64,000 bases of DNA from Anolis carolinensis (taxonomy: Eukaryota). Of this stretch, positions 1-45,992 are shown piece after piece. The position numbers and the translations under genes are program-made. The notes below the pieces were generated by a model. It made no database searches. It was not told the origin of the DNA and saw only the letters and a list, made by a program, of their open reading frames with translations. The first letter of the stretch is position 1. The number at the start of each line of letters is the position of its first letter. Location: assembly GCF_035594765.1 (NCBI RefSeq), contig NC_085842.1:77352782-77416781 (forward strand), given 5' to 3'.

Positions 1-1607
1 GCTTGCACCTCCTCCTCCGCACGCCTCCCGGTTGCTGGCTTGGGCTTTGAGGGTTTTGGCGGCTCCCCCTTCCGTGCCCAGCATTCTGCTGCTCGATGGC
101 CCGTCTTCCCACATACAAAGCATCCCGGTTTAGGTTTGTTGTCGTCTCCTCTGGAGGGAATCCCCGGCCTCCCTCCAGGTCTTTCCTGCTTCCTCGTTTC
201 TCCTCGACCTCTCGCCGCCGGTCTTTGCTGGCCGCCGCTGCTCCTGAAGCGCTTTACTTGGGCCAGGGTGGATTCAACGCGCCCCGCTAGTTGAATCCAT
301 CCCTGGAGCGTTTCGGGGTCATCTCTGTGCGCTGCCCAGCTGAAAATCTCGGGGCGTAGTCCCTCTTTAAATAACTCCACTTTGGTCACTTCAGACCACT
401 CTGGTACCCTTTCCGCGAGGTGTAGGAATTCCTCTGCGTACTCGGGCACTGTTTTGTCCCTCTGCTTTATTCCTTTCAGCTGGTCTCGAGCCCTCAATTG
501 CTCTAGCCGGTCTCTGAATCGGTTTTCCAGTGCGGCGAGGAAGCGGGGCACTGACCTCAGGCATGGGTCGTGTCTGGCATGGAGTTGCACGTACCAGCTG
601 GCTGCTCCTCGCTTTAGTGTGTTGCCGATGGCTCGAACCCTGCTTGCTTCGGAGGGGAATGTGTGTGCATTGTCTTCCATGTATCCTCTGATGCTAATTA
701 GAAAAAAGTTCAGTTCATCTGATTCCCCTCCGTATTCCAGTTTGAGATCTTCTCTTCTTGGCATCCATTCTGCGGCCCGTTGATGCTGTCTGGGAGGCAT
801 GGGGAAGGGTTGCATCAGGTTTCCTCGGGCGGCTCCTTGGAACACGCCGCGCCCCACTCCGGTGGTCATTCTGCGCGGCTCCCGAAAGTCTGCCGCCGCT
901 GTCGGCCCTTCCGCCCATCCGCATACTGGCCTCGCTGTAGCCCCCTCATCTCGCCTTTCCTCGTCGTACGGCACATCCTCCTCCTCTTCCTGGATCCCCC
1001 GCTCCTCTCCGCCTTCGCCTGCAAATCCACTGGACCCGATCCCTGGCCCCAGTGGCCTTTCCACCCCGACGCCCATTCGGGGGGTTGGGAGCTCTGTTGG
1101 GGATGGCGGCCTCAGAGTTCCCAGAGCTCGCTGGCGCTCCACTTCGCGCGCCATTCTGTCTCGGAACTCCAGCTCCTGCCAGTATTCCTCGTCTCCCTCG
1201 TCCCTTGCCGCCGCGGGACTCTGCGTTGAAGCTCGCTGTCCCCTCTGGCTCCAATCGCCTCCTTTGCTTGGCTCTCTCTCGGCGCCATATCGGATGTGCT
1301 CTTTTTGGAGATTCTCTTCCAATATTGGCACTATTCTCCCCACGCTATCCGACAGCCTGGATAAGTGAGTTTCCAGGATGGATAACCGCAGGGCCACGGT
1401 CTCCGGCATGCTTCCTCCAGATCCCCAACTGGTTTCTGCCGCCGCCGGAACGCCTCTTCCCCCTCTGGGAATCCTCTGGGTCACGCCGTCCGGCTTGGGG
1501 TACCCCGTAGAGGAAGCTATGGCTTGCAATGTCTCTTCTGCCAACGGCAGAGCTCCCAGCGGAGGCCCCTTTGCTCCGTCATGGCTTTGATCTCCTTCCC
1601 TGCTCAT
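1..1607 (-). CDS. gag: Gag polyprotein (PEG10/RTL1/sushi-like capsid + CCHC zinc knuckle), 3'-partial
   Basis: ATG at 1607-1605 (MSREGDQSHDG...) reads without a stop to the window edge. Capsid-like segment ...ELNFFLISIRGYMEDNAHTFPSEASRVRAIGNTLKRGAASWY...LKGIKQRDKTVPEYAEEFLHLAERVPEWSEVTKVELFKEGLRPEI; zinc knuckle CFVCGKTGHRAAEC (CX2CX4HX4C) at ~81-122. Absent from the ORF track because no stop lies inside the window. Confidence 0.9.
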   Translation of the reverse strand, partial: MSREGDQSHDGAKGPPLGALPLAEETLQAIASSTGYPKPDGVTQRIPRGGRGVPAAAETSWGSGGSMPETVALRLSILETHLSRLSDSVGRIVPILEENLQKEHIRYGAEREPSKGGDWSQRGQRASTQSPAAARDEGDEEYWQELEFRDRMAREVERQRALGTLRPPSPTELPTPRMGVGVERPLGPGIGSSGFAGEGGEERGIQEEEEDVPYDEERRDEGATARPVCGWAEGPTAAADFREPRRMTTGVGRGVFQGAARGNLMQPFPMPPRQHQRAAEWMPRREDLKLEYGGESDELNFFLISIRGYMEDNAHTFPSEASRVRAIGNTLKRGAASWYVQLHARHDPCLRSVPRFLAALENRFRDRLEQLRARDQLKGIKQRDKTVPEYAEEFLHLAERVPEWSEVTKVELFKEGLRPEIFSWAAHRDDPETLQGWIQLAGRVESTLAQVKRFRSSGGQQRPAARGRGETRKQERPGGRPGIPSRGDDNKPKPGCFVCGKTGHRAAECWARKGEPPKPSKPKPATGRRAEEEVQ

Positions 1608-1646
1608 TATCACTTCACTGCAAATTTGCAGGAGGGTGAGAACGGG

Positions 1647-1657
1647 ATTCCTGACTT
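1647..1657 (-). promoter_or_regulatory. Non-tRNA primer-binding site (self-priming type)
   Basis: AAGTCAGGAAT on -, 3 nt past the LTR end; exact reverse complement of the predicted transcript 5' end ATTCCTGACTT (1763-1753); no TGG tRNA-type PBS. Confidence 0.8.
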
Positions 1658-14240: not shown

Positions 14241-14305
14241 GTTGCAAGGTGGAATCCATATTTCTGAATGTTGAAGCTGTCAATACGCACAGAGACAAAC
14301 CACAG
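14241..14305 (+). CDS. PFKFB4: PFKFB4 penultimate coding exon (GCKVESIFLNVEAVNTHRDKPQ)
   Basis: ctacag|...CAG|gtagga, 65 nt. Confidence 0.96.
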
Positions 14306-17410: not shown

Positions 17411-17694
17411 TATGTTTTGTCAGAATAATTACACAAGCCACTGTACACACAGGGTCTCCTTTATAAAGTTGGGAGCAAATCCCACTGAACATAATGAATC
17501 CTATCTGCATAAACACACATAGTACTGCTAGCTGTATTTGTTAGTATGTTTTTAAAAGATGCAACTATCTTTGACTTTTTAAATATGTGCCAAATATTTG
17601 TTGATTTCACCAATTTAGCTAAGTGCTTACAAGGGAAGCTGGCTGACAGTGTTGTATGATAAACATTCTCCTCTGTATTTTTATTCATACGCAG

Positions 17695-17754
17695 AATGTA
17701 GACATTTCAAGAGATCCTGAGGAAGCCCTTGTAACTGTCCCTGCTCACCAGTGA
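17695..17754 (+). CDS. PFKFB4: PFKFB4 terminal coding exon A (NVDISRDPEEALVTVPAHQ*)
   Basis: acgcag|AAT GTA...CAG TGA; closely matches the mammalian PFKFB4 C-terminus (NVDISRPPEEALVTVPAHQ). Confidence 0.95.
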   Translation, partial: NVDISRDPEEALVTVPAHQ

Positions 17755-19264
17755 ATCCCGTTTCCTGATCAGCAATGAAACATTTGGTGCTGTTTTCAAC
17801 ATTTTACATTGAATTGATTTCAATCATTCCAATCACTTTGGAATCGACTCTTAATAATATCAGTTTCTGTGTCTTACATGGCATTTGGAAATCAATACAC
17901 ACTCAGTTCCTATTGGGCTGTTAACTGGTTGTCCCATTCTGCCAAATTCAATTTAATTGGTTGGACCATTTAATTACTTGCTCTTATGATGTCACTTAAT
18001 TGAATATTGCTAATTTTAATGCTGATGTTTTATATTCTTTTAAAGGTCATTTGTTTGAATTCTGTTTTGGAGGCTAAAACTGCAAGTTCTTGCTAATTTA
18101 GTGGGGCTTTTTTTCTTTAGTGATTGGATTGTTTTAAATAGAAGAGCATAATGTAATTTCTAGTTAGCCTAGCTAACAAGTGCATGAATGAAGTAAATAA
18201 GAAAACTAGCAAACTGTTTAACACTGATATTTTTGCAGGTCGTGATGTGCTTGACTCCTACCTTGGTGTGAAATAGTTTTTGTGGTTTTGTCACATTTGA
18301 TGGATCTGACTGATCAATTTTTAAGAACTTGACCAACTGAGGAGATGCTTGTGATAAATCAAGCAGCTTTAAAAAAGACAGTTACAAAAGCTCAGGACAA
18401 TTTTAAGATACTTTTAAACAACATCTCAGTAGACATTTTCTGTCATCATAGAGAATACCTGCCATAACACATGCATACTGTGTGTGAAAACAAAGTATGG
18501 CTCTTGCTCTGGATTTTACTAGCACACAAAGTTAATCTATTAACCAACTAATTAATAATTGAGAATTCCATATAGTTGTTCAGGGCCAGCTGTGGCTACC
18601 CGTGAGAGATACTTTATTTCACTTAGATTTTGCTGACAGCAGTCTAGTAAACCAGATGTGTGTGATTTTTGGGTTTGGAGTCATTTTGCAGTTCTTCAAG
18701 GTGACATAAGGGGATACTTTTAGAAGGCAGGTTTGGTAAAATCCATATTCGTACAAAACCCATTGGAGCAGAGTCTCAGGGGATGAAAAGGTAAAATGTA
18801 ATTAATTTAGCAATTGGAAGAGGCTGTGGTAGACAAACAATTACTGGCACCATTGACTTACCTGTGATGTTGCTAGAGGTGTCTGAGTGACTAAAGCGGA
18901 ATTTAGTTGGATATAGGAAAGCATTTGCCAAGACTCTCTGGCTTACTTCTCTTTGCCACATGTTTCTTCTATGTATTGTACATTAATTTTTGTTTTGAGT
19001 TGTTTGTTCAGCTCCACAGTTGCACAAGGTGGAGGATTCTTCTAGGTAGTGCCATTTTGCCAGGTTGTCTTTTGATCTGCCCACTCTGCTTCTGAGTCTG
19101 TTTGGGGACTTCCAAAGTTCAGGGCCATAATGAACAAGTGAATGTGGGCATGACTCACCCACTTGCTTGTCATACAGATTACAAGATCAGGTGGCAAATG
19201 GTTCCTGTCCAAGTGATTCTGTAGTGTTTCTTGAATCGACCATCTCCTTATTTATTTATTGTAT

Positions 19265-19426
19265 GGAATCATAGCATCTTAGAGTTTGGAGATACTACAA
19301 GGGCCATCCAGTCCAGCCCTGTTCTGCCATACAGGAATAAACAATCAAAGTACTCCTAAAAGATGGCTATCCAGCCTCTGTTTATAAATCTTCATTGAAT
19401 GAGATTCTACTACACTCTGAGGCAGG

Positions 19427-19459
<33 letters not shown>

Positions 19460-19890
19460 GCAACAACAACAAACTTTATTTGTATACTGCCCTATCTCCC
19501 CAAAAGAACTCAGGGTGGTTTCCAACATGTAAGGCAAAACATTCAATTATCCACCACCATAAAACATCTCTTAACATCAAGAAGTTCTTCCTAATGTTTG
19601 GGTGGAGTCTCTGTTCCTGTAGTTTGAATCATTGCTCCATGCCTTAGTATTTGGAGCAGCAGAAAGCAAACTTGTTCCATTTTCATTAGCACATCTTTTT
19701 TATATACGTGAACATGGCTATCATGTCCTCTCTGAACTCTGTCTTCTCTAGGCTAAACATACTCAGTTTCCCAAGACACGCCTCAGATAACTTGGCTTCT
19801 AGACCTTTTAACATTTTAGTTACCCTTGTTACCCATGTTCTAGCTTGTCAATATATTTCTTGAATTGTGGTGTCCAGAACTGGACACACT
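19265..19890 (-). mobile_element. CR1 LINE 3' fragment with a nested (AAT)n/L2-tail-like insertion
   Basis: CR1 text aagggccatccagtccagccc...aagttcttcctaatgtttgggtggag...ccagaactggacacac; (AAT)n/(AAC)n at 19427-19471. Confidence 0.75.
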
Positions 19891-20644
19891 ATGACTAAAA
19901 CAGAAGCTTTTTGTAGCTTTTTTTAAAAACAAAGAAATTACAAAAAAATTAAAAGGCGGCAGTGCTGTAGAAAGAAGCAGCGCCCAATCAGTTAAAATGT
20001 TTTCAGTACAAGCCATAATAACATTTTGAAGCCTCTTTTAAAATGTCAAAGATCTTTGCCTGCCAACAGAAGGATCTCTGGGCAAGGATTTCAAGAGCAT
20101 AGGAGTGACCACTGGGAATGTTTTCGCTGTCATCCCCACTAAGTGGGATTACAGTGGTAGTAAAACTAGGACCTTAAACTCCACATAGGTCTGTATTATT
20201 AATATGAAGTTTTAAATATTCTGAATCATGGAAGGCTTGATGGGTCATAACCCAAACTTGGAATTATGTCCAGAAGCAGACTATTAGCTGCATGTTCCCT
20301 GTAACTGAATCAGCCATACGTCTGCACCATTCTGGACTTGCTGATTTTTTAAAATGGTTTTCAAAGGAAACCCTGTGTGACATATTTTACAGTTGTCCAA
20401 CCAGTACAAATGATAAAGATGCATCTCAGTGTGGCTGGATATCACATCTTTAGAAACTGACAGTTTCTAGGCTTTGCTGTTAAAGTCTAGCCACCATTAC
20501 CAAAACCTTGGATTCCACCTTTGTGGGTAAATCCAAGAGGATGCCTCCACTGTGAGTCTGAATCTTCAAGAGGACTTAATTACTTGGTTTTCCTTTCATA
20601 TCATCAGCAGTAACTGTCTTATCTTGGGGGGGGGGAGGGGGAGT

Positions 20645-20941
20645 CATAGGGAGGAAGGAGCAAGCTTGTTTTCTGCTGCCCTGGTGACTAGGACGCAGAA
20701 CAATGGATTCAAACTATAGGAAAGGAGATTCCACCTGAACATTAGGAAGAACTTTCTAACTGAGAGAGCTATTCCGTAATGGAACTCTTTGCCCCGGAGT
20801 GTGGTGGAGGCTCCTTTGGACACTTTTAAGCAGAGGCTGGATGGCCATCTGTCAGGGTTGCTTTGAATGCCATTTCCTTCTTCTTGGCAGGGGGATGGAC
20901 TGGATGGCCCATGAGGTCTCTTCCAACTCTATGATTCTATG
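20645..20941 (+). mobile_element. CR1 LINE 3' end
   Basis: ggaaaggagattccacctgaacattaggaagaac...ttccaactctatgattctatg tail. Confidence 0.85.
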
Positions 20942-22140
20942 GATTAAACTTCAATTTGTGTGCTTTTATTCATTCTACTTTTTTTTGAATTGTGAGGGAT
21001 TTGACATGTGAGTCCTTTACACTTGAGAGTCCTGAGTCAAAGAGAAAATGTGGAGGGAAAATAGCTGCATCCTATAAACTTTTATCAGCTGAAGGCCGAA
21101 CTTACTCCTTCTCCTCTGTGTGTTCTTAAAGAAAACAAATAGCAAATTGGGTTTTTGCGGCATCAGGCACACACGTGGCTGTCTGTCAGAAGTCATTACT
21201 GCTAGTTCTTGGCTTTAGCAAACTGCTTTAATTCCACTTAAGTTCCACCATAATTTTAATGTAGTTTTGTCTGAATATTTTCAAAAACAATCTGCCCTGT
21301 TTATAATAGTTCTTACTGACAGACAGAAGGTTGGCTTTCTTTCAGGGACAGGCATTAAGCAGCATGTGTTTCATTACTACTACTTAACTAATGGCTGCAA
21401 ACTGCAGCATTCAGCAGGTTGTAGTCTGATATTGCCAGAATAAAAACCAGATAATGTACACATCTTAGAATCCAAATATATTTCACCTGATGGAAACTTT
21501 GTCCACTTTTCTCCAACACTTTTCTCTTGGATTATTTGAGGTGTATAGGCATTTTTTTGGGCTCAAACCTGTGAATCTTTTTCTCTTGTCCTTGTGTGCA
21601 TGGACATTAATGCTGAAGGTGAAGATGTGCTCCCTTTTGGTTGTTTACAGAACTTCCTATGTTGGCCATGGCCCATGGTGATAGTTTCTAATGGATGCCG
21701 AAAAATAAGCTGCTATCTTTGAGCTAACCTAACACAGATGTGGGATTTGGGGTTGAAGCCAAGTAGATGCAAATCCAGCAGGTTGTGGTCTCATTGATTG
21801 TCCAGTTAAACTGCTGTGGACTACATGGTGCAGTGCAACTAAAGTCCTGTCTGTATTGAAAAGTTTATTCTGCGATGAAAGAACTTGTAACAAAGTAATG
21901 CTATATCGAACCATCAGTGTCTGGATGTAGTTAGCATGAAATACTGCCTTATAGCAGTCCAAGCTTTAACATTTTGACTTGGAAGTAAGTCTCACTGAAG
22001 TGAGTGAGACATACTCTCGGGTAAGTCAGCACAGTCTAGTGGCCATGATTAAAGGGAAGCTTCACAAATAAGACAAAACTATGTCATTGAAACTGAAAGC
22101 CCTGACGATGTCTGACATGTTTTCTTCATGTTCTTTTCAG

Positions 22141-22200
22141 AATGTATGCGTTAACCGCTCTCGGGACGAAGCTTTGAGGACTGTACCTAATCACTTGTAA
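22141..22200 (+). CDS. PFKFB4: PFKFB4 alternative terminal coding exon B (NVCVNRSRDEALRTVPNHL*)
   Basis: Strong acceptor ttttcttcatgttcttttcag|; same phase, same 60-nt length and homologous peptide as exon A. Confidence 0.8.
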   Translation, partial: NVCVNRSRDEALRTVPNHL

Positions 22201-25200
22201 CTTTCCCGACCTGGTGCCAACACCGTCCCAAACTGCTGAAGGAGCTCAAAAGAAACAACTCAGGGACCTGAGAATGAAGACAACCAAGTGACACTGAAAG
22301 GCACGCACTCCTCCTCTTTTAGACTGTGTTTTTTAACTACCAAGGACTTGGCATCAAAGGCTGAAGCATACCAAGTATTTATGGAATATACAATGAAAAT
22401 GCTTTTAAATTAATCTATGTTGTCTTATGTTGTTCCTTGCCCGTGGATGTTAAAGGTTATGAAATAGTGTTGTCACTCAATGTAAGGTTTTGACTTCATC
22501 AAGCTTCTAAAATCTTTTCTAGAGCTATTGCTTTGGAAGACCATCTAGTCTTTCTGTATCAGTACTTCAATTGTTTTATTCAAATATTATAAAATAGCCC
22601 CAAACAGAGGATATTTTAAAATAACGGAGGGCATATAAAATATTTACTGTATTGTGCAAGAAAGCATATCCATTCCTTCAAGAATCCATTCCAACTTCTG
22701 TTTTGTAAATGTGTTAATCCTGTTAATTTATCAGTTTTAGCAACACTTTTTATCCTTTCAGTGCTATACAATAGATTATTAAATTGCCATTTTTCTTGAC
22801 TGTTTACACTCCACAAATTGGAATATCAAATTTCTTTAAAAATTAAATTAAAGACACCACTTGATATTTCATATCTTCTAACTGGAAACCTCTATAAGCA
22901 AAATTTCCTTTAAAGTGCACTCCTATCTTTTTCAATTATTTTAACCCATCTCCATTAATGTTTTAAGGATATTTTTTATATAGAGCATGAATATATTCCA
23001 CAAGATAACACCAAATTGTAAGCACTTTTTATTTAACAAAGGTCATTATACTTGTTTTTGTCTCTGAACATTTGTTAAGTACAAAAGCAAACTACAAACA
23101 GGTACCAGTTGAGCTTATGAAAAGAAAGGCTTGAAAATAACACCACCTTACATGGAATGAAAAAGATAGCAATAAATAGCACTGTTAAGGCAAGGTGCAA
23201 GACAAATCATGAAAAAGAAATGACTTCGAAGCAGTAGCATTATTAACATTATGGAAACATGTTTTGTTTCTTAAACCAAAGTCACTGCTTTGTGTTTTTT
23301 TTAAAGGTGAGAAATTTTGGGATTGTTATTAATACAAATCTGAGTCTTACAGTTATTTTGTCAGCCAAATTATATTGGCAAGATGAACTGAAAGGGATTC
23401 TTTACATGTGTCTGTAAAGCAGTTTTTTTTTCTGTAAAGCACGAGGCATGTAGATGTCCTATGAAAAATTTCTCCATTCCTCAAGACTGTTGAGTACTTT
23501 CTCTCTCTAAACCTTTGCTTCCCTACATTGTCATTGTAGAAAAGAAAGGAAACACACTGGAACATGAAGCTGTGCAGGTTTTCTAGTACTTGCGTGCATA
23601 GCTTAATGTGGTCTTGTTGATGAATTTGTGTAATGTTCTTACAACTAGGCGGTTGTCCCACATTTTGAAATGAGTCAAACAATATACCCTTGTGCATATT
23701 AACCTTCCATTTATATGTATTCAATAAAAGTGATACATTTTATCAGTAATTCTTGATGTGACAGAATTCGGCAAGCAGTAGATGGGGCCCAGAATTGGGT
23801 TGGTACACAACATCAGTTATGCTGTGGCAGCTGGAGGGAGAAAGCTTGCAGGCATGGAGTTGGAGAAACAGGCTGCTGAAAGCTGGCAGATTTTGTCTGT
23901 TGCCCTTGCCACCCCTGACAAAAATAAAAGGAACTACACAGTGTAGTACACCAACAGAATTCTGACTCTCAGGTGCCCTTTTCCACTACCCTGGCATTAT
24001 TATTCCTCTTGAACTATGATGCTGCATCCTATGGAACTGTGAAGATTGTAATTTGGGGAGGTGCTAGAACTCTCTTGAGTATTCTCAATGCGCCTCCCTG
24101 AACTGCAAATCCCACATTTCCATTGGCTGCTGCCAGTGCAATCAGTGTGGAATCATAACACTCTTAATTGGGTAGGTGAAAGCTTCCATATGTGTTAGTT
24201 CTTGAAAAGAGGGAAGTTTTGTCCTCTGGAGTAGGAACATTTTTATTCACTTTCTATGTCAATTAATTAACTGATTCTTGCCATGCTGTTAGCGCCAGAG
24301 CAACGCACAATGCACCATAAGTTTACAACTATAGCTGGGTGCTATCATAACCTGCCGCTGTGTTAAGTTTCTGTGTTCAGCAATATTTCGTTTTCAGCAA
24401 ATAAGCCATAAAAGCAATCTCATTTCAGAAAATGAAATGATTGTGTTACACTGTAAGTGCTTTAAATGTATTTCATCTTGTCAGGTAATATGCGTTTGAA
24501 TTGTGGGTCCCTTGTTACTGGAGTAGATGAGGATCAGAAAGTAGAGCTCTTGATCCACAAAAATTGAGTGCTGTGCAACAGTGTTCCCAAATTAATTCAG
24601 ATTGTCCTGTCACGAAACGTGCCCTAACTTCTTTGAATGCAGGCCAAGGGATGTGAACTATTTTTTTGCCATTTAGTGGGAAGGTACAACTTTGTGTAGT
24701 AAATGCTGGACTGATAAGACAACGCTCCTTTATTTAGATGATGCAATGGGCTTGTCTTCAGTGGTGGACAAAATATTTTCTTTTAAACTTTTCATAACCT
24801 GAGAGAAGTGTTTATTATCCTTGTTCATTTGATTCCATATTTCTCATTGTGTTCTAAAATTCTGTGGCTAAATATTTAATGTATAGTAGATATTTTTATA
24901 ATACAGACTATGATTACAGTGTTTCTTCTTGGATGTATAAGATATCCCACATGTTGTATGCAATTATAAATTTATGTCGATACTTGAAAATGAAAAGACT
25001 TGGGAAGCTCTGACTGGTTTTTTTTAAATTAAGCTGTGATTTTAAATGCAGAACTTAGAAGTCAGTCCCTCTTTGAATCTAATAATTGGACTTGCTTCCA
25101 AGTAAATGAGGTTAAGATTGGGATGTTCCATTTTTTATGTTTTCCATCAGTTCCAGTGACCATCTTTAGAAGATTTACATTTCAACCGGACTGCTGAAAT

Positions 25201-30335: not shown

Positions 30336-30536
<201 letters not shown>

Positions 30537-30814
30537 TTAATCAATATGGAGGAAATGTGATTCATAGGCCAGGAACTCCTATGAGTAAAAAAAAAATATG
30601 TTTGCTATTAAAAAAATATTTTGCCACAATATGTCCTCTATGGGGCATGGGCTGCATTTAGTGTGGTGGAAATGCAGGGCCAGTTTAAGCTCAAGGAGAT
30701 GACCTTTTTGGAAAAGGAAGTGAGCTCATTCTTCTGAAAAAGGCCTCTTCTGGGTCTAAAACGACAGGAGAAAGGACAAAATGTGTGAAAATGTCTCAAA
30801 TGCCACCTAGTGCA

Positions 30815-30941
30815 TTTGGAGGCTTTTAAGCAGAGGCTGGATGGCCATCTGTCGGGGGTGCTTTGAATGCAATTTCCTGCTTCTTGGCAGGGGGCTGGAC
30901 TGGATGGCTCACGGGGTCTCTTCCAGCTCTATGATTCTATG
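30815..30941 (+). mobile_element. CR1 LINE extreme 3' end
   Basis: ggaggcttttaagcagaggctggatggccatctg...ctctatgattctatg. Confidence 0.85.
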
Positions 30942-31189
30942 GAGACCATTATTTACTTGCTTGTGTGTGGGAGCAATTGCAATGGACAAATGTGGCCTTC
31001 CAAGGGGTGTGTGTGTGTGGAGTACAGCCCCTTAATCTTCCATAGCTGCCTACCCCAAATCTATAACTGTTGGTCATTATACTACTAGGAATCTATTTTA
31101 ACTAGCATGGCAACATCCTATGTAATGCTGGGGTCTGTTCAAGTCTTCCCTGAATAGGATAACTCCAAGCATAACTCCAAGCATGACAT

Positions 31190-31290
31190 TTTTTATTTGT
31201 TGTTTTATCCCACTCCCACCCTCCCCTCCTTGTTCATACAATTTATACAGCAAACTACAGAAGTTACATTTGAAATATCAATCTCAATCT
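31190..31290 (-). mobile_element. Short poly(A)-tailed retroposed fragment with 18-bp TSD
   Basis: Direct repeat TAACTCCAAGCATGACAT at 31172-31189 and 31291-31308; insert ends AATAAAAAA on -. Confidence 0.55.
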
Positions 31291-32424
31291 TAACTCCAAG
31301 CATGACATAACTATGCTGGGTAGGGAGTTGTAATTCCATCATATCTGTAGGCCAGATACTTGGATGATGTGGCCTCAAGTTCATGAAATATCATGCTGCA
31401 ATAAATGCATTTATCTTTTACATGTCACAATGCTTGGCTTTTAAAAACTAGTTAACAGAACAATCCCTTTTGGGGGTGGTGGTGGGAGAAGACATTATTC
31501 CACATTTTCTAGCTATAGTTGCTACCATTCCAAACTTAAGCAATCACTGCTCATAAGCCGAACACATGCTAGTTTGCAAAAGATTTGGTGCAATTCTTGA
31601 TATATTTCAGACTTCCTAGAGGTGTGGAAACAAAGTGTTAAATACAAGAAATTTCAATAATCAAAACTCTGCAGGAAATTGTGTTTTTAGGTTGAGTCAT
31701 ATTAAAAGCATATAGAAACTGTTCCAAACAAAGAATATAGAAATGTTGGGAAATAACTTCAGGAAAAACAGGAATTTTCCTCCAGCAAATCAACATCTAG
31801 TCATTGAGTTTATGGAGTGGCCATAAGTTCTATTTATTTCACAGGATGGCAGTAATACGTTTTTAAAATGAAATGAGGTAGGGGTGCAAACTGATAGAGA
31901 GCCACTCCCAGCTCTCCAATTAATAATTCAGAACTTAAGTGTTGCAGTCCTTTATTTGAAAAATATCTGACAATACACTAACCCCCTCTGCTTTTACAGG
32001 GTTATGAACGCAAGGCTCCTGTGAAAGTGGAAAAAACATCAATTAAAAAATGTTCAAGGTTCATGATCTTGAGGAGCGAGATAATCCTAGAGAGAAGATA
32101 TTAATCAAATCCACAAATAATCAAATCTGCAAAAATTTAAACCTGCTAATGTGGAGGGCCAGCAATATTCTAAAATGCGTATTTTAAGAGATAACTGCTT
32201 AAGCTATGTGTATCTTTAAAACTGAATGTACAACGAAGTGTGTCTTTTCTTTCTGTCTGTCTTGAGGTGCATGAATGGCAGAATTACACTGGAGGTGTAT
32301 ATATAAAACAGACATAAGACTTAAGATTCCTAAAGTGATACCACATATGCTACTCATAGTTTCTAGATACAATACTGGAATAAAAATGCTATGGAGAAAT
32401 GCAGCTGAGTGTCATACAGGCTCA

Positions 32425-32565
<141 letters not shown>

Positions 32566-33742
32566 CTACAAAAGATGACAAAATAACATATTTAAATGAC
32601 AGCATGACTTGTCTGGGTTGGTAAGAGGCCGGAATTGATTTATGTGGTGGAATCTACAGAGCTTTAGTCATCTTGGCTTCTCCTGTAAGCACTTTGTGCT
32701 CTGTCTGTGCTGGCAGGAATTTTAAAAAGCCACTGTCACAGGCGCTGGAGAAACAGGCTGTGTATGTGCTTCCCCTTGTGCACTGTAAAATCTTGGAAAA
32801 AGTGGAACCACGAAGATCAAGAACCAACAAGATTCCAGCCAGAAGATGACATGTAACAGTTTCCCACCACTATCCTCTTCCTTTGGAGGAATCCCTGTAG
32901 CTGCAATTTGGGAGTACAGAGGGTTTAGGTTCATGGTTTTCAGTCCAGGGTAGTGCTTTGGCTGGGGAGAAAGTAATGCCAGATATATCCCACTGTCCCA
33001 ACATGGCTCACTGTCCCAAGGCAACATATGACACTGTATTATTATTGTTGTTTATTTTTATCTCATTTTTCCTCCCACGGGTGGGACTCAAAGCAGGGAA
33101 CAAATGGTAAAAACAAAACTACATAATATAATAACACAGCATATTTCCCCAAAACAACATATAACAATAAACCAGGCACAATACATAAACAAATTACATA
33201 GCATATAAATAAGCATAAAAATAAACAACACATATCATTATCATTACAATTATCAAAATCATTAAAATCCCTAGGCCTCAGGCCACTGGAGTTGTCCTAG
33301 AAACATTGTAATAACAAGACTCAAAGCTCCACAGCTTTAGCCACATGAGTCTTGCCTGACTGAGATAGCTTGCCATTATGGGATGTTGGGGAAGGCCAGC
33401 TGGTTGTAATCTGGAGCAAAAGGCCAATAACGAAGGGGCCAAGTGCACCTCTTTGGGGAGGGAGTTCCAGAGCCAGGGGACCACCATTGTAATAGCAATG
33501 GATAGATCAATACTAATCTCAATTTTACTGAGGATGGAGACTTAGGATGCATGTACACCACATATGTCAAACACAAGGCCCATGGGCCAGATCCAACCCG
33601 CCACATCATTTTATGTGGTCTGCGAGGCTTTCAATGCCAGGGAAACATAGTTACATTTACACAGTCTTACAATTACAAACGACCCTTTGAAGGCAACCTT
33701 AAGGCTGATGTGACCCTCTCAGTGAAAATGGGTTTGACACCT

Positions 33743-33961
33743 CTGATCGACACTTTAGAATTAATGCAGTCTGGTATCACTTTAACTGACATGGCTCAAT
33801 GCTATGGAATCACGGGAGTTGCAGTTTTACAAATTCTTTGGTTTTCTCTGCCCAAGAAAGCTGGTGCCCATCAAACTAAAAGCTCTCAGGATTCCATAGC
33901 ATTGAACCATGGCAGTTAAAGTGATGGCAAACTACATTAATTCTACAGTGTAGATGTATCC
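33743..33961. mobile_element. Palindromic MITE (Harbinger-like), adjacent to a hAT-like remnant at ~33560-33743
   Basis: agaattaatgcagt...actttaactg..atggctcaatgctatggaatc and its inverted copy gattccatagcattgaaccatggcagttaaagtg...attaattctacagtgtagat. Confidence 0.7.
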
Positions 33962-33982
33962 TTCATTTCTTTGAATACTCTA

Positions 33983-34393
<411 letters not shown>

Positions 34394-35329
34394 TTATCTT
34401 CAAGAAGTATAAAAACCAGAGCTTTGTTTTTTTTTTTACCAGTTAAGGCATCATAGATAATTCAGATACAGTATTTTTATTTGCTACAAAATCTTTATTT
34501 TCAGAGTTTATGTGACTGTATTTTATCCCCTTGGTTTCTCTGGCTGCATTCCGAGATAGCAATCAATTGTATGTAGTTAATTGTTAGGAACCTTTTGCTT
34601 TAACTTACAACAAACTGCAGCAGAGATCTATATCTGAACTCAACCTACTCCTTCATTTGGTTTTGTGGCAGTTGACATGGTTCAAAACATCACTTGGATC
34701 TTACTTTGAGAGAAAGGCAAAATATATATTTAATAAATTATTGAACAAAGGTTATGATTGGCTAGCTTCGTACTTTATGCTGAGCTAGCATTATTCTGCC
34801 GAACTGCAGTATAGCCAAAAGTTTTAATTTTGCCGCTGCAATGGAAGAGAGAAGATGAGGGAGTAAAGCTTTCTGCAGCTCATGTAGGTAAAAATAAATG
34901 TACGACTGTGTCCAAAAATATGTTTCAAAGCAGCTGCCATTAAACATTATTTATTTATGATTTATGGTAATCAAATTGTGATGTTAAGACATCACATAAT
35001 TAAATGCTGTATTGGTAATATATGCTCTATATAAACAGATTACAATAGGCCCTCAGTAGCCGCTGGGTTTTGGTTCAAGTCCCCATTCGGGTCCATGGAG
35101 GTTCAATTTCCATTATATGCAACAGCATAGTAAAATGGTGTCCCTTATATAAAATAGTAATGAATTCAAATAAGTACTGGAGAGAGACTGAGGATCTGTG
35201 AAATGATTGGAGGCTGCTTTAGTGCAGTATGTGCCAAAATTCATGTTTTACCCCTTTCCATTTTCTCCCCCCAAATATTTTCAAGCTATGGTTGGTTCAG
35301 ACCATGAATGCAGAACCCATGGATTGGAT

Positions 35330-35330
35330 A

Positions 35331-35373
<43 letters not shown>
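35330..35373. repeat. (CAT)n microsatellite
   Basis: About 14 CAT units; source of the spurious poly-H/poly-S ORFs. Confidence 0.95.
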
Positions 35374-35375
<2 letters not shown>

Positions 35376-35510
35376 TTTTATTTATTACCCACTTCCCTTA
35401 GTGGCTCGAGGTGGGGTACAGCAAATTCAAAACACAGGAACATAGAATACTTACAATAAAATACATAGATAAAACACACCAATATAAAAAAAACATAGAG
35501 CCAACTGCAA

Positions 35511-36323
35511 TCTATATACAGTAGAGTCTCACTTATCCAAGCTAAACGGGACGGCAGAAGCTTGGATAAGCGAATATCTTGGATAATAAGGAGGGATTAA
35601 GGAAAAGCCTATTAAACATCAAATTAGGTTATGATTTTATAAATTAAGCACCAAAACTTCATGTTATACAACAAATTTGACAGAAAAAGTAGTTCAATAC
35701 GCAGTAATGTTATGTTGTAATTACTGTATTTATGAATTTAGCACCAAAATATCACGATATATTGAAAACATTGACTACAAAAATGGCTTGGATTATCCAG
35801 AGGCTTGGATAAGCGAGGCTTGGATAAGTGAGACTCTACTGTATATAAAAGGGTAATGAAATTTCGGCCTAGGATAAAACAACAAAACTACACTTCCCAG
35901 AAACACTAAACTTGGCAGCACAACCCCTCATCCATGCCTCTACGTTCATACAACAAAAAGAAAAGAAAAATAAAGTCCTAATTAGAGGGAGAGGAATAAT
36001 TGTTTTTATCCAATTGCTGCCAGTTAGAAGGCTAAGCTCCGCCCACTTGGTCTCCTAGCAACCCACTCAGCCCAGGGGACAGGCAGAGTTAGGCCTTTTA
36101 GGCCTCTTCCACACTGCCTATAAAATACAGATTATCTGATTTTAACTGGATTATATGACAGTGCAGACTCAAGGCCCTTCCACACAGCTATATAACCCAT
36201 TTATAATGGACTTAATGTAAGGTAAAACCTTTATCCTTTACCTTAACTACCACCAATTCCTCAATACTTTATTTCCCATACCACCATACTTCGCCACAGC
36301 AACACGTGGCTGGGCACAGCTAG
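35511..36323 (+). mobile_element. Non-autonomous Helitron
   Basis: A|TC 5' end at 35511; subterminal hairpin gccacagcaacacgtggc; CTAG|T 3' end at 36323; inserted between A and T, no TSD. Confidence 0.82.
35519..35841. mobile_element. Tc1/mariner-type MITE nested in the Helitron 5' end
   Basis: TIR CAGTAGAGTCTCACTTATCCAAG with TA flanks. Confidence 0.92.
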
Positions 36324-36415
36324 TTATATATAAAGTTGTTTTCATTTTATTATTTATTCAGATAATAATTTCTAATTGCCATTGGGCAAACACTTACTAT
36401 ATGAATTGATAACCA

Positions 36416-36738
36416 CAGTAGAGTCTCGCTTATCCAACATAAACGGGCCGGCAGAATGTTGGATAAGCGAATATGTTGGATAATAAGGAGGCATTAAGGA
36501 AAAGCTTATTAAACATCAAATTAGGTAATGATTTTACAAATGAAGCACCAAAACATCATGTTAGACAACAAATTTGGCAGAAAAAGTAGTTCAATACACA
36601 GTAATGCTATGTAGTAATTACTGTATTTATGAATTTAGCACCAAAATATTACGATATATTGAAAACATTGACTACAAAAATGCGTTGGATAATCCAGAAT
36701 GTTGGATAAGCGAGTGTTGGATAAGTGAGACTCTACTG
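36416..36738. mobile_element. Tc1/mariner-type MITE
   Basis: Same TIRs and interior as 17088-17410. Confidence 0.92.
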
Positions 36739-37386
36739 TATATGGCACACTATATTAGAAATAGGTGGATGTGAAGTGCATGATGTGCATGTGGCTAAAA
36801 GGGGGAAAAGGTATGGATTGTAGCTTAGAACTAGATACATTGTATATTCATTTTTAAAACACCCACTTCTCCAGTAATGTGTGAAATGACCTTTATACCA
36901 TTATTATATTGAAAACTGAACATCACTTTTCTACAGTTTATGGGCGTCGACTCCAAATGACTCACACCACATTTTATGAATGAAACTTAAGAACCACATA
37001 GATTTTAATCAATGAATGACACTTAAAAGAAAGCTGTTGATACCATTACACCTCCATATAACATTTAAAATTTCTTTTTTGTTGAATTCCAAGAAAAAAA
37101 CTCAACTGTGGGATGAAAAGTGTTTTTGTGTACATATTTCTGGCGGAGAGTAACATTTAATTTTGTTTAATAATAGGCTTACCTGTACCAGAAACCTCTT
37201 GACCTGAATCCAACATGTATTTTACTTTTTTAAGCCTCTGGTACACAACATGAGTTCATAAGCATTATTGGAACAAATGATTCCAGGATTTGGATAATTA
37301 CTTTTTATCTAGAAAGGGCAGGGAATTGTAGTGCAACACACCAAGAGAAACTAGGTTGGACAAAGCTGCCTTAGAAATATAGATCA

Positions 37387-37608
<222 letters not shown>

Positions 37609-38556
37609 TCACTTAAAGCAGGAGTACATACAAGCCCCATGCTGCAGTAGTACTAACTGTATCCACTGAAACCTCATTTTCAGCCTCACAGGACACTTCT
37701 AGTATAAACACAAAACTACATACGAGTTCATGGGCAGGAAGAGTATGCGGACTCAGGAAAGGGCAGGCGAACTCTTATGCTAGGAGGGTCTGAGGTCCCT
37801 TCCCTAGGCGATCAAGCAAAATCAGATCATCACGTAGATCAGGTTATTCATGAATTATCACCCAGTGGTACATTAAATGCTCAAGCATTCAAAAGATTAC
37901 GATATCTATTACAATTGAGACTTGCCAAGCTAAGATGTCAGAGATCAATGGAAAAAACTGGTTGCCTTAGCTAGGACACCACTCTCATTGCTACATAATT
38001 GTGTTTCTGAAATGAAAGCCAAAAGCTTACTCAGTGGGAAAAGAAACCTGAAAGCCAATATACCTTTAAATCTACCAGCGAGCTGAGTTTCTCCAGAGAA
38101 TGGTCAAATCTGGCCCACAGCACAGAACCCATTTTATTGCAGTGCAAGATGTATTCCTTTTAATTTCTAACCCTTCCAACATTTGTTATTGAAAGCAAAG
38201 CACACAGTTCGGTACTTTTACCAAATGCTGGCCCAAATACTATCAATCTGCTTTGCCACTAGAATGAAGACAGACATGTCTCAGTTTTGAGGCCAAATGC
38301 TTGGCAATGAGCAATGTGAAACAAAGATCCTTTTGTGTAATGTAAATAACACTTCTTTTTTCTTGTTGCCGGGGAGAAAAGAAAACCATTAGGGGTTCGT
38401 CCCAAGTACCTCTGGAGTAAAATCAAAATGTAATAGGGAACTGCTCCTTTTAAAATCCTCTGCTTGTAGGTTATTCACAGAACCCACCAATTCATCACCA
38501 TGACACAAGTGATGCAATGTTTTACAAGATTCTTACCAAGGTCAATCAACACTCAC

Positions 38557-38619
38557 CTATAAATAATGCCTTTGCTATGAAGAAACTGCAAGCCGCAAAC
38601 TATTTCAGCTCCATAAAAC
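38557..38619 (-). CDS. PRKCD: PRKCD coding exon (FYGAEIVCGLQFLHSKGIIYR)
   Basis: ttcag|...|gtgagt, 63 nt. Confidence 0.96.
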
Positions 38620-39625
38620 CTGAAATAGAGTAAAAGCACTTTAAAACAGAAATGAAAACTTAAAAGTAGTAAGCCCAATGCTATTACAGTCACTGACCTC
38701 TCTGACCTCCAATTGCATTCAGAAATCTTTCTCTTTTCATACAAATCTTTAGAAGCAGTATAAGTAGGAGGTGTTCAAGACATAAACTGAGTTAGAAAGA
38801 ACTTATGATCAGTCTGTTTCCTTCCAAATCTCTCTGCCCTTTCAAAAAAAAAAAGGCAGGAAGTCCTTACACACATTCTAGTTCCTGGAAACCCTTCCCT
38901 TCATTCTACACACTTTCCTACTTTCACTCATCCCAAGCCCATCCTTCCCTAGCTCCTTTGCATTGTCGAGATGAAAATGCAAATATTTTCCTCTGCTATT
39001 CAAATCTGATTTCATTTTATCAAAGAGAGGACACTTTCTCAAACCATTTATAAGCTCTAGGTGTTATATTGTCTTGTGTGAAGAAAGATATTTCAAGGTC
39101 ACGTTAAAATTCTGCTGATGGACTGGATAAGAATTGGGATCTATCACACCTATTTTGTTTGCAACCCAACATAAGTGCTGCTTCTGAAAATTATTCTTGA
39201 CACTGGAGTTGAGTAGAAGCCCAAGGTCCTACTAAGGCATTTCAAGCATGCAGGGTTTTACCTTGGGGAAGCAAAAGTGGAACTCTACTTTTTATGTACC
39301 AGGTGAGACACTCCATCAGATATCAAGACTTGCATTGATTTGCATCATTTTTTTGTTTCCAAAGTTAATGCAAATGGGTTTTTAGAAATAGTTTTCAACT
39401 CTAAAACATGACCTGAAAGTTTGATTGTTCCCTTTAATCCCTATGCAAAAGTGAACAGCACCATAGTGGTCAAATATGGAGTTGTAGTTGTTTGTTGTAT
39501 GACAACACCTTCTGCCATATTGTAGAAGTACAATGCATAGTACTTCCTTTGCAAAACACTTGAGCTTAAACAAATTTTTGGATTTGAAAAGGATTATTAC
39601 CAACTCAGAACATTGCTGACACTTA

Positions 39626-39718
<93 letters not shown>

Positions 39719-40791
39719 CTATTTACAAACAGGAGAGAACATAACATTAACCAACTGATGTAACTGTCTTCAACATTAACATGCGCTTTGAATGAGTCCA
39801 GCTGCAAAATTTTACCCTCTGAATGGAAAATTTGACAAATGCTGTCAGGCATTTATTTGTTTACTTTTATTTATTACTTTACATATATTTACTTCTTTCA
39901 ACTACAAACACGCCACCCACCTCACTTGGGATTCCTTAGAAATTAGAAATGAAACAATTCTATAGACAACATGAATAGCAATGAAAAAAATGGAAAGAGC
40001 ATCAACAAATAAAAATATTCTAAAGTGAGGGTTCATCACAGCAAGATAAATGCTTGCCAGAATAGGAAAGTTTTAACCGCTCAGTGAAAAACAAAAGGAG
40101 ATGGAGCCATGGATTTTACAGGGTAATGTATTCCACCATTTGGATGCTACAATGGAAAAGATCTGTTTTTCACTTAGGGGAATAAGTACTTAGGGGTTAT
40201 AATTGTATACTGTGAAAGGGCTCCTGGCAAGCTGATACAGAGCAAGGCTGATGGCAGTATGGATGGGCATCAGTAGTCAGCTCTGTCATAATCTGCAAAG
40301 AAGCAAATTTTGATTTCCCAAGCAAAGAAATTTAGGGATATTTCGACATCTTGTGATGGAAGTTGAAGCGCAGTTTGCCCAAGGCAAACTACCTGTCTCT
40401 TAGGTCGTGTGAGCTCAAACCACATAAAATGGTGATTACCATTTTAGTTTATTTAGTAAGACAGTTGTGCTGAGTATATTTTAGCAGGGAAAATTTCATT
40501 TTCATGTTTTATGACTACTCATGAACACTGTTAGAACAATGTAATTATGCTAACTAGTACAATTAGTAGTTATCAATTTGCTTTTTCTGTCATTTTGAGC
40601 ATTCACTACAACAATTGATTAATTTGTAAGAATAAGGATATTGTTTTCCTACAAAATACTAATGCAGTGGACATGGGAGACATAGTGGTATAAGCAACAG
40701 GCAATATGGTAGAAGCAGAAGATGTGGCAAATGAAATTATATGAAATGTAATACAACAAAATTCAAAATCCAAAAAGTAGCAATACCTTTA

Positions 40792-41124
40792 TAGGTAAAG
40801 GTAAAGATTTTGCCCTTACACGAAGTCTAGTTGTGTCTGATTTTGGGGGTTGGTGCCCATCTCTTTTTCTAAGTGAAAGAGCCGGCGTTGTCCGTAGACA
40901 CATCCAAGGTCATGTGGCCAGCATGACTGTATGGAGTGCCATTACCTTCCTGCCAGAGCAGTACCTATTGATCTATTCAAATTTCCATGTTTTCAAACTG
41001 CTAGGTTGGCAGAAACTGGGCTAACAGTGGGAGCTTACCCCGCTCCCTGGATTCAAACCACTGACCTTTCAGTCAACAAGTTCAGCAGCTCAGTGGTTTA
41101 CCCGCTACACCACCGGGGGCTTCC
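40792..41124 (-). mobile_element. Full-length Sauria SINE
   Basis: tRNA-like head at right, (ACCTTT)n tail at left; 13-bp TSD AGCAATACCTTTA (40779-40791, 41125-41137). Confidence 0.92.
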
Positions 41125-41913
41125 AGCAATACCTTTACTGGGCCAAATAAAACCAAATAAAAGCAATAACATTACTGGGCCAAAACCAAATAACAACATA
41201 CATTATGCAAGTTTGTGAAACTTCACTGGCTTCTTCATCAGGCAAAGATATTAAAAACTGCCTCTTTCTTAGACCACACTGGACAAAGACAGCTGGGTCT
41301 CAAGGGAAGATACTTTTTCTGTAGTTAATGAGATGAAATGCTATTACTTGTCTTTTATTGCCTCATGACTATGCTTCTCTTGTGATTAAGAAGGAACGAG
41401 GCCTCAGTCTACACTGAGATCCCTCAATACCATCTTGACAACAGAGTAACATCAACATGCATACAAAAAGTCATCCTGTGACATCTCTTGTATGGTTTAA
41501 ACATCTTGCTTGATGAAGAAGCCTGGAATGCTTTGGAGGCTTGCATAATATATTTTACATTTTGGAGTTGTTGCAATAAAGCTACTGTTAATTTGTGGGT
41601 TTTAGAGCTTGTATTTTTCTGCATGGTCAATATGGTCACCCTGAGTTTGTTATATGAAACATATAATGCACCCTTCCTGCATATACAGCAACTACTGCCC
41701 CAGAGAAGTGAGCCACTTTTAAACATATTTAGACATTGCCTTCTTAAATAGCTCACTTTGGTTATAATCTGCTGAGTTGTATCTTTGCTCACTTGAGATT
41801 CTCTTATGATCATTTCCTTTTTCCTGCCTCTGGTTATCTACTGCTAGAGTACTTCACCTCAAAAAAACTCAACATTATTTTTGCTTGGTTAGTTAATACT
41901 GGAAGTAAAATTA

Positions 41914-42102
<189 letters not shown>

Positions 42103-43773
42103 CTATAAAATAGAATATTACTTTGAGATACAAATAATTAGTTTGAATTAGGAATTTTCCAGTTGAAAAAATTGCTTTTTTGTGATCTGACAGCTACAAC
42201 ATGATATCTGATTTCTGAGAAGCATATAAATATTCACTCTGTAGCCATGTGAAACATCAAAGGGTGCTGTGACATCTTGAAGATTACAAACAACCTAAAC
42301 TTTTATGGTTTATATCAGATATAATCTCTTCCCATAGGAAATTTAGAATGACTCCTCTCATGTTGTCCTTCTGTCAACAGAAAAGATTTTTCAGTATTCC
42401 AGTAGGCTTTGCTAACTAACCAATCAATGGAATAATGAGACCACACGACAAGATATGGGTTAAAATATGGTCAGCTTTATAAACTATCACCTCTTGAAAT
42501 GTTTCTCAGTGATATTCAAAAACTAATAAGGGCAGCTACCTGGTGTGGGAACAACTGGGGCAGTAGGTCTCTCCTAGACCTCTTCCTCAGTTTCCCCTGG
42601 GTGAGAACACTGTAGCACCCAAGAAAAACCCAACTTAAATGTGGGTTACTCCCAGGCCAGCTGTCAATATGGAAAGTTGACTCAAGGGATCATCCCTCAA
42701 GCTACATGGCCCCTGAAGTGGGCAAAACCCCTGAGACCAGCCCCAAGGGCAATAAATTTGCCCAACCTCAAATAGCATGATACTCAGAGGAAGTCTCAGA
42801 TTACCATCCTTTGCCACAGATGTTCACCAAACTCGTCATATCTCTTTGTAAGACCTGCCAGTGAAACCTATTTAAGACATCAATGGTACCAGTGAAAAAA
42901 ACCCTTTAAGGAGGAGGAAAATATTCCTGGCCAGTCCCAAAACAACCATCAAAACAACTAAACATATATTGTGAAAGGGGGTGAGGGTGGTAGTGTAAAA
43001 GAGGGAGATAAAGGATGGCTCAGTTCTGCTCCCTAAACTAAGGATCCTGGCATGAGATTCCAATACACAGCTTATTCTGGCCTCTCTCCACCTGAGATTA
43101 GCAAAAGGACCTCAATGCTAAGCTGGGGGTGGGGAGCTTTCATAAGATTCAATATAGTCTTGAGCTATTTTTATTATTTTTATTTCATTTTAGCGCAGTT
43201 TTAATGTTGACATTAATGTTTTAACTATATTATAATTGTAATTTGTAAGCGATCTTGAATCTATTTTCTTTTTAGAAAAGAGATATGCAAAAATCATCGT
43301 TATCATCAAATGCATGAAGCACTATCCACAATTCAAGGCAATGAACTCTTACAAGGCGAACAGTTTTGTAGCATTTCTATGCAAAGCACAAATGTATCTC
43401 AGATAAGAAAAAGCTGAAAGATATCATAATACCTTCCTAAAAATGTCATGGTCAAACAAACATGCACTGAAGGAAAGAAATCCATGTTCCTAATGCGCTT
43501 TCACTGGTTTCTGATTTTTTTTAAAGAAATCAGTATTTTATCCACTGCTTGATGTTTTCATACAGTTTAAAATTAGTAGAGTGATATGTTCCAAATGGGA
43601 ATGACAATAATGTTCTAGCCCATTATTTTCTTTCTCTCTGAAGCATCTGATATGTTCATTCTGACTAACACCTTTTAATCTGCTAGGCTTCTGCCTTTCA
43701 TTTCCCTTCACTCCTTTCTGCTTTAACTTGGAGCTGGAGCATTCATTTAAAAATCTAAAGCAAAGTTAATTAC

Positions 43774-43892
43774 CTTTCCAAAACTTCCTTTCCCAAGAAC
43801 TTTATGGAAGACAAAACTGTCTATGTTGAAATTTCTCCTGGATGGCCGAGACAATGATCTTCCTTCCCAGAGCTTATCATACTCACTATTAT
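43774..43892 (-). CDS. PRKCD: PRKCD coding exon ([40 protein letters not shown])
   Basis: tacag|...|gtaatt, 119 nt; glycine-rich loop GKGSFG. Confidence 0.96.
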
Positions 43893-43972
43893 CTGTAAAA
43901 ACAAAAACAAAAATGCAATTATGACAAGACAACTTCCCCCGTGTGCCCTGCAGTGGCCTGCTACTGTGATTT

Positions 43973-44222
43973 ATATATATTTTTTAATCGTGTCAGAAGC
44001 GAATTGAGAATATATTGCAAGTCACTTTTGTTGTGAGAGAATGTGTTATCATCCTGTGCAAACGTGCATAGATGTGTTATCATCCTGTGGGAGGCTTCTC
44101 TCATGTTCCGCATGGGAAGCTGGGGCTGACAGACGGGAGCTCACCCCATCACATGAATTCGAACTGCCGACTTTCAGATCAGCAGGCACAAGGGTTTAAC
44201 CCATTGCAGCACTGCGGCTCCT
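43973..44222 (-). mobile_element. tRNA-head SINE with a Vingi-LINE-like 3' tail
   Basis: Head ggagccgcagtgctgcaatgggttaaaccc...; tail ctcaattcgcttctgacacgat; 8-bp TSD TGTGATTT (43965-43972, 44223-44230). Confidence 0.8.
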
Positions 44223-44790
44223 TGTGATTTTTAAGTGCAAAGAACTAACATACCATGGACGTTTTTGTGAAGCTGTTCATGTCACTAACGTGAGTGGACA
44301 CAACAATACAGAATGCACCAGGCCAAACCAATAGTTCATAAGAGTTACAACCTCAGGATTGCTCCTAATCTTACTCTGCAGTTTTATTATTGCTTAACTC
44401 TGTCATGGTTTTGACAGAGTTTATTTGTATACAACCCGAGAAGTTTGGTTACCACAAAGTATTAAAGGTTCAACAAATAATATACATCAATGGACACAAA
44501 TATGATGGTGTAGAGAAGAATACTCTAATTTGCAATTATGTTCTGTAAAATGCCTTCAAGCCTTGAAACCATCAGCACAGTGGATCTAACCATACCTACA
44601 ATTTTGATTCATGTACTGAAAGTTGAACTACCTTTTGCGCTTATAATGTGCTTTGCTGCATATGTTTTTGCAATTCACTTTATATTTTTATTCTTACTGA
44701 GCAATTATTTGCATTATAATAGTGAGGTATGTGAATATGTTTGTGTTCAAATCCAACCCATAATAAAAACAATTTGACTTAATTTTTCAC

Positions 44791-44887
44791 CTGTTGTATC
44801 ACCACCTAAGGCTTTAGGTTGCTTATCAAAATCCTGGTAAATGCCAACACTTTCTACTGACCCAGAATCAGATTTTCTTGAAGATCT
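44791..44887 (-). CDS. PRKCD: PRKCD V3 hinge exon (RSSRKSDSGSVESVGIYQDFDKQPKALGGDTT)
   Basis: ttcag|...G|gtgaaa, 97 nt; conserved VGIYQ (Y311/Y313-equivalent). Confidence 0.93.
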
Positions 44888-45673: not shown

Positions 45674-45894
45674 CAGGCATGGGCAAACTTGGGCCCTCCA
45701 GGTGTTTTGGATTCAACTCCCACCATTCCTAACAGCCTCAGGCCCCTTCCTTTTCCTCCTCAGCTGCTTAAGCGAGGAAAAGGCGAAGGAGACACTTAAG
45801 TGGCTGATGGGGAAAAGGAAAGGGCCTGAGGCTGTTAGGAATGGTGGGAGTTGAAGTCCAAAACACCTGGAGGGCCTAAGTTTGCCCATGCCTG
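45674..45894. mobile_element. hAT-type palindromic MITE
   Basis: TIR CAGGCATGGGCAAACTT; 8-bp TSD GTATAGTG/GTAGAGTG; near-perfect fold-back. Confidence 0.9.
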
Positions 45895-45992
45895 GTAGAG
45901 TGTATACACTACTGTAGCAAGCACTTTGAAATTCCAGTTTAAGAAACGAATGAGGAAAGACGATACACAGAATAAATATTAACAGGACGTAC

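Follow-up and report, generated by a model that had tools for sequence, protein, structure and literature searches.

The window analyzed here, a 64,000-nucleotide (nt) stretch of the Anolis carolinensis genome in whose coordinates all positions are given, carries exons of a gene that its sequence identifies as PFKFB4, the gene for the testis-type PFK-2/FBPase-2, with a kinase and bisphosphatase core and a 14-exon layout. Rat testis PFK-2/FBPase-2 (1BIF) was the best of 14 PDB matches for one window exon and also the best PDB match for the Anolis sagrei isoform X1 protein (P0146), and the top-ranked homologues carry the name PFKFB4; the genome holds three more PFKFB loci. We placed exons 1 to 13 on the genome, exons 5 to 12 by tblastn with the A. 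sagrei isoforms. Exons 1 to 4 lie upstream of the window, exons 5 to 12 fall between 2657 and 12354 on the plus strand, and the 65-nt exon 13 (14241 to 14305, plus strand; donor CAG/GTAGGA) is the common upstream exon of two last coding exons, which we refer to as A and B.

The coding part of exon A (17695 to 17754, plus strand) specifies a 19-residue tail followed by TGA and is the orthologue of mammalian exon 14. The first 60 nt of exon B (22141 to 22200, plus strand) specify tail B if A is skipped and would be 3′ untranslated region (UTR) if A is included; behind them runs a common 3′ UTR (22201 to 23800, plus strand, with AATAAA at 23723) that may reach about 25500 in some samples. As an earlier note on this DNA had described, each coding part is 60 nt long including its stop and is in phase 0 after the 14305 donor, with a good acceptor; each acceptor consists of CAG and a pyrimidine tract (14 of 20 pyrimidines ahead of A and 17 of 20 ahead of B). 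Tail A is identical to that of A. sagrei PFKFB4 isoform X2 (XP_060621879.2; P0147), and tail B is identical to that of isoform X1 (XP_060621878.2). The window exons share 89 to 100% identity per exon with A. sagrei PFKFB4, so the two are not identical outside the tails.

Exons A and B form a homologous pair. Their tails are identical at 10 of 19 residues, as had been noted; of the 8280 windows of 19 codons that follow an AG on either strand of this DNA, the next best after B reached 7 of 19. Detectable protein homology between two adjacent exons is what marks a tandem duplicated exon substitution. Exon B is single copy in the genome (1 match), and the flanks of A and B showed no homology beyond one 31-nt match (E value of 0.095). 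The earlier note had read protein-level selection from diverged synonymous positions, and this argument fails: a different codon is used in just 4 of the 10 shared residues, and matches at codon positions 1, 2, and 3 are about equal (10, 12, and 11 of 19). Selection cannot therefore be read from the A/B pair by itself; the claim of an old duplication under selection is upheld instead by the presence of both tails across bony vertebrates, described below.

Spliced contigs bring exon B into the coding sequence. The exon was contained, with its UTR, in 20 of the 24 listed runs, and four runs (X1, X8, X10, and X14) were aligned to positions 20950 to 23900, where contigs show presence but not absence. 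In X1 and X10, contigs join the end of exon 13 (mapping to 14282) to 22141, confirming the spliced use of this acceptor that had been proposed. In X8, a 1375-nt contig (contig 13) enters 22141, joined at 22140/22141 to a loose end that maps to 17756 to 17785, just before a weak 5′ splice site, TTG/GTGCTG (17787 to 17798, plus strand). The 32 noncoding nt from 17755 to 17786 (plus strand) complete a 92-nt cassette A. Thirty loose letters of this contig were read and the remainder was inferred from length: exons 2 to 13 account for 1253 nt and A for a further 91, 1344 in all against 1345 loose letters, and the contig fits, within one base, a fully spliced mRNA running from exon 2 to exon 13, then A, then B. 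Each mRNA carries a single tail, exon 13 to B in X1 and X10 and exon 13 to A to B, with the stop in A, in X8. The use of different junctions in different runs, whose tissues are not given, hints at a choice between tissues. Contig ends, a weak hint, fall at 23797 (X1) and 23841 (X10), and the X8 contig extends 1584 nt past 23900.

These junctions modify the picture of two mutually alternative last exons. Homologous, mutually exclusive C termini are borne out; however, in the A form that we saw, A is a cassette joined by splicing to B, whose UTR the two forms have in common. A thus appears mainly as a 92-nt stop-carrying cassette. Nor does each exon have its own UTR poor in transposable elements, as had been supposed. 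By comparison with 91 kb of this genome, three repeat-matching pieces lie between A and B (19259 to 19425, 19563 to 19892, and 20635 to 20947), and the first AATAAA after A (19336) falls inside the first of them; no canonical poly(A) signal occurs outside repeats before 19948. No repeat match was found between 22141 and 26000 in the same comparison.

We consider it likely that these tandem homologous last coding exons let splicing pick the tail of PFKFB4 and that the choice tunes the bisphosphatase side of the enzyme in a tissue-dependent manner. If exon A is skipped, exon 13 would be joined to B and the protein would end in tail B. If A is included as a 92-nt cassette, translation would stop in A and B would become 3′ UTR. 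Nonsense-mediated decay (NMD) acts on mRNAs whose stop lies more than 50 to 55 nt before the last junction. Since the stop of A lies 32 nt before the last junction, A-included mRNA would escape NMD, and the cassette lacks the spacing of a poison exon. Tail choice would be regulated by tissue, Xenopus would have let exon A decay, and the two tails would differ in their effect on catalysis.

The cassette structure can be followed into other vertebrates. A metagenome scan yielded seven loci, none of them mammalian, and the sole one with a tail exon was an amniote contig (L002). There, the same 12-base donor lies exactly 32 nt past the stop of exon A, the same stop-to-junction distance as in the lizard, and a block around exon A (17647 to 17844 on the plus strand, from about 48 nt upstream to 90 nt past the stop) is conserved at 77% identity (205 columns; E value of 4e-39). 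This block is likely to be splicing regulatory, a role suggested by its conservation; YCAY and similar motifs near exon A (two in the lizard, four in L002) are too few for naming a regulator. The 4.7 kb available after exon A of L002, against a gap of 4.4 kb in the lizard, yielded no exon B, which is no evidence of its absence from that locus. In Xenopus laevis isoform X5 (P0335), a diverged A-like segment without a stop is followed by B in frame, so that both units are read in tandem, an exception outside this species to one tail per mRNA. Four mormyrid records carry tail A plus 11 extra residues. In the two records tested, the extension and its stop match the +1 frame of exon B at 12 of 12 positions, whereas the best of 100000 shuffles matched 7 and a template of tail A or PFKFB1 gave 2. 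This fit implies that a donor lies within CAG-TGA of exon A; the lizard has a candidate for it (CCA/GTGAAT, 17751 to 17756, plus strand), from which B would be read in the +1 frame, and no use of it was seen in this lizard. Two manakin records and one mormyrid record end in A plus Met, which the same route fits, on two positions only.

To place the two tails among vertebrates, we classed 274 PFKFB4-like proteins (at least 240 residues long and reaching exon 13) by a rule on tail positions 7, 13, and 19. The sample was drawn from the cluster representatives listed and from no more than 15 members of each cluster, and most database isoforms are automated predictions. The rule gave 128 A tails, 95 B tails, and 51 others, with Xenopus X5 and three shark tails counted as B. 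B tails occur in snakes, geckos, turtles, birds, frogs, axolotl, and teleost pfkfb4a and 4b, and those of turtles and birds are near-identical. Annotations of squamates, turtles, birds, and teleosts include both tails, which speaks for long-term conservation, and the two are found together in a single species in the case of A. sagrei, Crotalus tigris, Phasianus colchicus, Brienomyrus, Brachyhypopomus, and Coregonus. In amphibians, B is the main annotated tail (8 of the 9 tails seen are plain B). In the PFKFB1-like paralogue of the lizard, the 18 kb that follow exon 13 (within 20 kb analyzed) contain just one tail exon.

Mammals stand apart. None of 83 mammal-type proteins ends in B, in agreement with the earlier note, which had taken exon B to be absent from the canonical mammalian protein; 62 end in A and 21 in unrelated tails. 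These proteins were picked by the exon 13 end motif, are nearly all placental, and represent protein records rather than mammalian DNA. A profile search with B tails likewise returned no mammalian PFKFB4 with B among the best 120 of 1314 matches, and mammals have likely lost exon B. A further search, with the 42-residue frame ending in tail B, gave four candidates, none of them scored, and in a representative library it matched two unrelated repeat proteins; so short a query carries little information. From exon order and diagnostic residues more than from a tree, we infer that the duplication predates the divergence of tetrapods from ray-finned fish some 430 million years ago; the orthology of fish and amniote B has the same basis. 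Sharks (P0259, P0271, and P0339) have a B-like tail with an extension of 7 to 10 residues, and no A-type shark tail was present among the matches. The shark tails and the Xenopus A-like segment were not firmly placed in the 19-column tail tree. In passerine birds, exon 13 is followed by yet another tail, 20 residues long and unrelated to the other two, in nine PFKFB4 records (P0121, P0129, P0196 to P0198, and P0204 to P0207).

Several observations weigh against a tissue-regulated switch of this age and function. The runs are presumed to be RNA (none is recorded as such) and come without tissue or strand. The A-to-B junction in this species is one contig of one run (X8), X14 covers 20950 to 23900 almost completely with zero junctions, and the intron side of exon B (20950 to 22141) is covered in all four aligned runs. 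A retained intron, a long UTR, DNA, or antisense transcription from the convergent neighboring gene could account for this cover. In L002, AATAAA motifs lie within 250 nt after exon A, which favors terminal use of A in that species. The tail tree (40 rows, 19 columns) splits A from B with 53 to 63% support and puts PFKFB1 in between, and amniote B is equally close to fish A and fish B (11.5 of 19 each). Finally, frog PFKFB4 (isoform not stated) rescues the migration of human melanoma cells via its N-terminal half (PMC9348664), a noncatalytic role for which the tail is thus dispensable.

The tail follows the bisphosphatase domain, aligning to residues 450 to 468 of 1BIF. This tail is reported to pack near the bisphosphatase site, and its deletion to raise bisphosphatase activity in the liver enzyme. 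PFKFB terminal regions modulate both kinase and bisphosphatase activities (PMC4178209), and we judge it about an even question, leaning if anything slightly toward yes, whether the swap tunes catalysis. AlphaFold2 models from 30-sequence alignments had a mean predicted local distance difference test score of 41 (B) and 51 (A), with the tail below 50, and were set aside. The tails share the motif N-V-x-x-x-R-x-x-E-(E/D)-A-L-x-T-V-P-x-H, and positions 1, 2, 6, 11, 12, 14 to 16, and 18 are kept in both classes (9 to 10 of 19 invariant or nearly so). The 50 distinct B tails have Ser or Thr at position 7 (48 of 50), Gln, Arg, or Lys at 13 (48 of 50), and Leu or Phe at 19 (45 of 50); A tails have Pro, Met, or Leu at 7, Val, Leu, or Ile at 13, and mostly Gln at 19. 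Because these three positions define the classes, counts at them are partly circular.

Alternatively, the two tails may be equal in catalysis, the pair being kept for binding partners, turnover, a phospho-site at position 7, or control at the mRNA level, which we regard as possible but doubtful. The common motif suggests that a structural role is kept in both tails, and mammals manage with A alone while most amphibian tails seen are plain B. Against equal catalysis, from fish to birds the classes retain their own residues at positions 7, 13, and 19, subject to the same circularity, and the activity-modulating regions of the family are placed at the termini (PMC4178209).

Classical alternative last exons, in which A would usually end at its own poly(A) site or continue as an extended unspliced UTR and splicing of A to B would be minor, are an unlikely account of the locus. 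The intron-side contigs in four of four runs, the junctionless X14, the lack of a repeat match in the first 1.5 kb after A, and the AATAAA motifs near A in L002 are all as this account would have them, and mammals, without B seen, must end in A. It has to contend, however, with a donor kept at the same distance in L002, with an X8 contig that fits an mRNA spliced from A (17786) on to B, with the absence of AATAAA and ATTAAA from 17755 to the repeat at 19259 in the lizard, and with A joined to B in frog, fish, and manakin annotations. The cassette and terminal-exon routes can coexist.

The earlier note had also seen in tail B a basic tail, with a Cys and an R-S-R site that might serve redox or phospho-regulation. 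The charge difference survives in amniotes more than in general: net charge is −1 to +1 in 46 of 50 B tails, but frog and axolotl B tails have −3, like lizard A. Arg8 occurs in 10 of 50 B tails, so R-S-R is not a general site; by sequence, Ser or Thr at position 7 is a conserved mark of B, and the phospho-regulation reading is weakened, retaining this residue (48 of 50, at a class-defining position) in its favor. A redox switch through the Cys of tail B is very improbable. Cys3 is present in all four squamate B tails seen, and PFKFB3 is regulated by glutathionylation (PMC6131595), but these are the only 4 of 50 distinct B tails with the residue; position 3 is Gly in birds and turtles, Asp in amphibians, and mostly Asn in fish, so the conserved reactive Cys expected of a redox-regulated PFKFB is lacking. 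The reading of exon B as a nonfunctional duplicate or an artifact of annotation, which the automated origin of most isoforms might suggest, is largely refuted by spliced contigs in two of four runs, near-identical turtle and bird B tails, and the standing of B as the main amphibian tail.

Other features surround PFKFB4 in the window. A novel-type protein kinase C gene (30341 to 47743, minus strand), which from its motifs we take to be PRKCD, is convergent with PFKFB4, its stop about 8 kb from exon B; the UTRs of the two genes may approach or overlap, the X8 contig reaching about 25484. A 551-residue open frame (3 to 1655, minus strand) lies within PFKFB4 intron 4 and is presumably gag-like, from a long terminal repeat retroelement, and long open frames inside an intron of the neighboring kinase gene (50972 to 54660, plus strand) have endonuclease and reverse transcriptase motifs, from which we take them to be a long interspersed nuclear element. 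Position 22948 is G in all four runs and A in the window, likely an allele or assembly difference.

The PFKFB4 tail pair fits a known class, the C-terminal tandem duplicated exon substitutions, in which adjacent homologous exons swap one C-terminal region and which are likewise ancient; they make up 77 of 236 human events (Martinez Gomez et al. 2022, PMC9741552), and the human catalogue lists KRAS, as a C-terminal event, and CDC42 (Martinez Gomez et al. 2021, PMC8373072). It differs in that PFKFB genes are absent from the catalogue, as represented by one supplement file of PMC8373072 and the available text and supplement of PMC9741552. This absence is consistent with the loss of B in mammals.

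KRAS has the closest architecture, with 4A as a stop-carrying cassette after which 4B is UTR. There too, the protein ends in one of two short tails from tandem last coding exons, an arrangement that dates back to early jawed vertebrates (PMC9882654). As differences, mammalian KRAS retains both exons and its tails determine membrane targeting; 4A was proposed to have come from NRAS by exon shuffling (PMC9882654), whereas PFKFB4 A and B look like a local duplication. Within the family, PFKFB2 (exon 15; 58- and 54-kDa forms) and PFKFB3 also have a spliced C-terminal regulatory region (PMC4178209, PMC6131595), but their forms gain or lose long phosphorylated regions, whereas PFKFB4 swaps homologous tails of equal length. 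For PFKFB4 itself, rat splice variants include some that differ in the C-terminal part (cited in PMC4178209), and skipping of exon 6 in human PFKFB4 (PMC12639319) is a different event from the tail swap. The A. sagrei isoforms X1 and X2 have identical tails to those found here, as protein records without the cassette structure.

We found no description of the PFKFB4 A/B exon pair in the literature covered, which left subscription papers and bioRxiv supplements outside its scope and the rat splice-variant paper unread; the tail pair is already in databases as predicted isoforms and otherwise apparently undescribed. Tentatively, and with somewhat less than even confidence in the whole, it may represent a tissue-regulated splicing switch, not described before, that in fish, reptiles, and birds has controlled the PFKFB4 kinase:bisphosphatase balance for more than 400 million years, while mammals fixed A and frogs largely B. 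Its interest is bounded by the known kind of system, the isoforms already predicted in databases, and our finding no human counterpart. PFKFB4 sets fructose-2,6-bisphosphate, and regulation comparable to that by the phosphorylated tails of PFKFB2 and PFKFB3 had not been described for it as of 2013 (PMC4178209); its equal-length conserved tails offer a clean natural protein pair for studying tail function. Amphibian annotations mostly end in B and mammalian ones in A, which bears on comparisons between model organisms. If the switch is real, work on frog, fish, and chick PFKFB4 may have used another tail than that of the human enzyme, and the swap would be a natural experiment on the control of fructose-2,6-bisphosphate by the tail.

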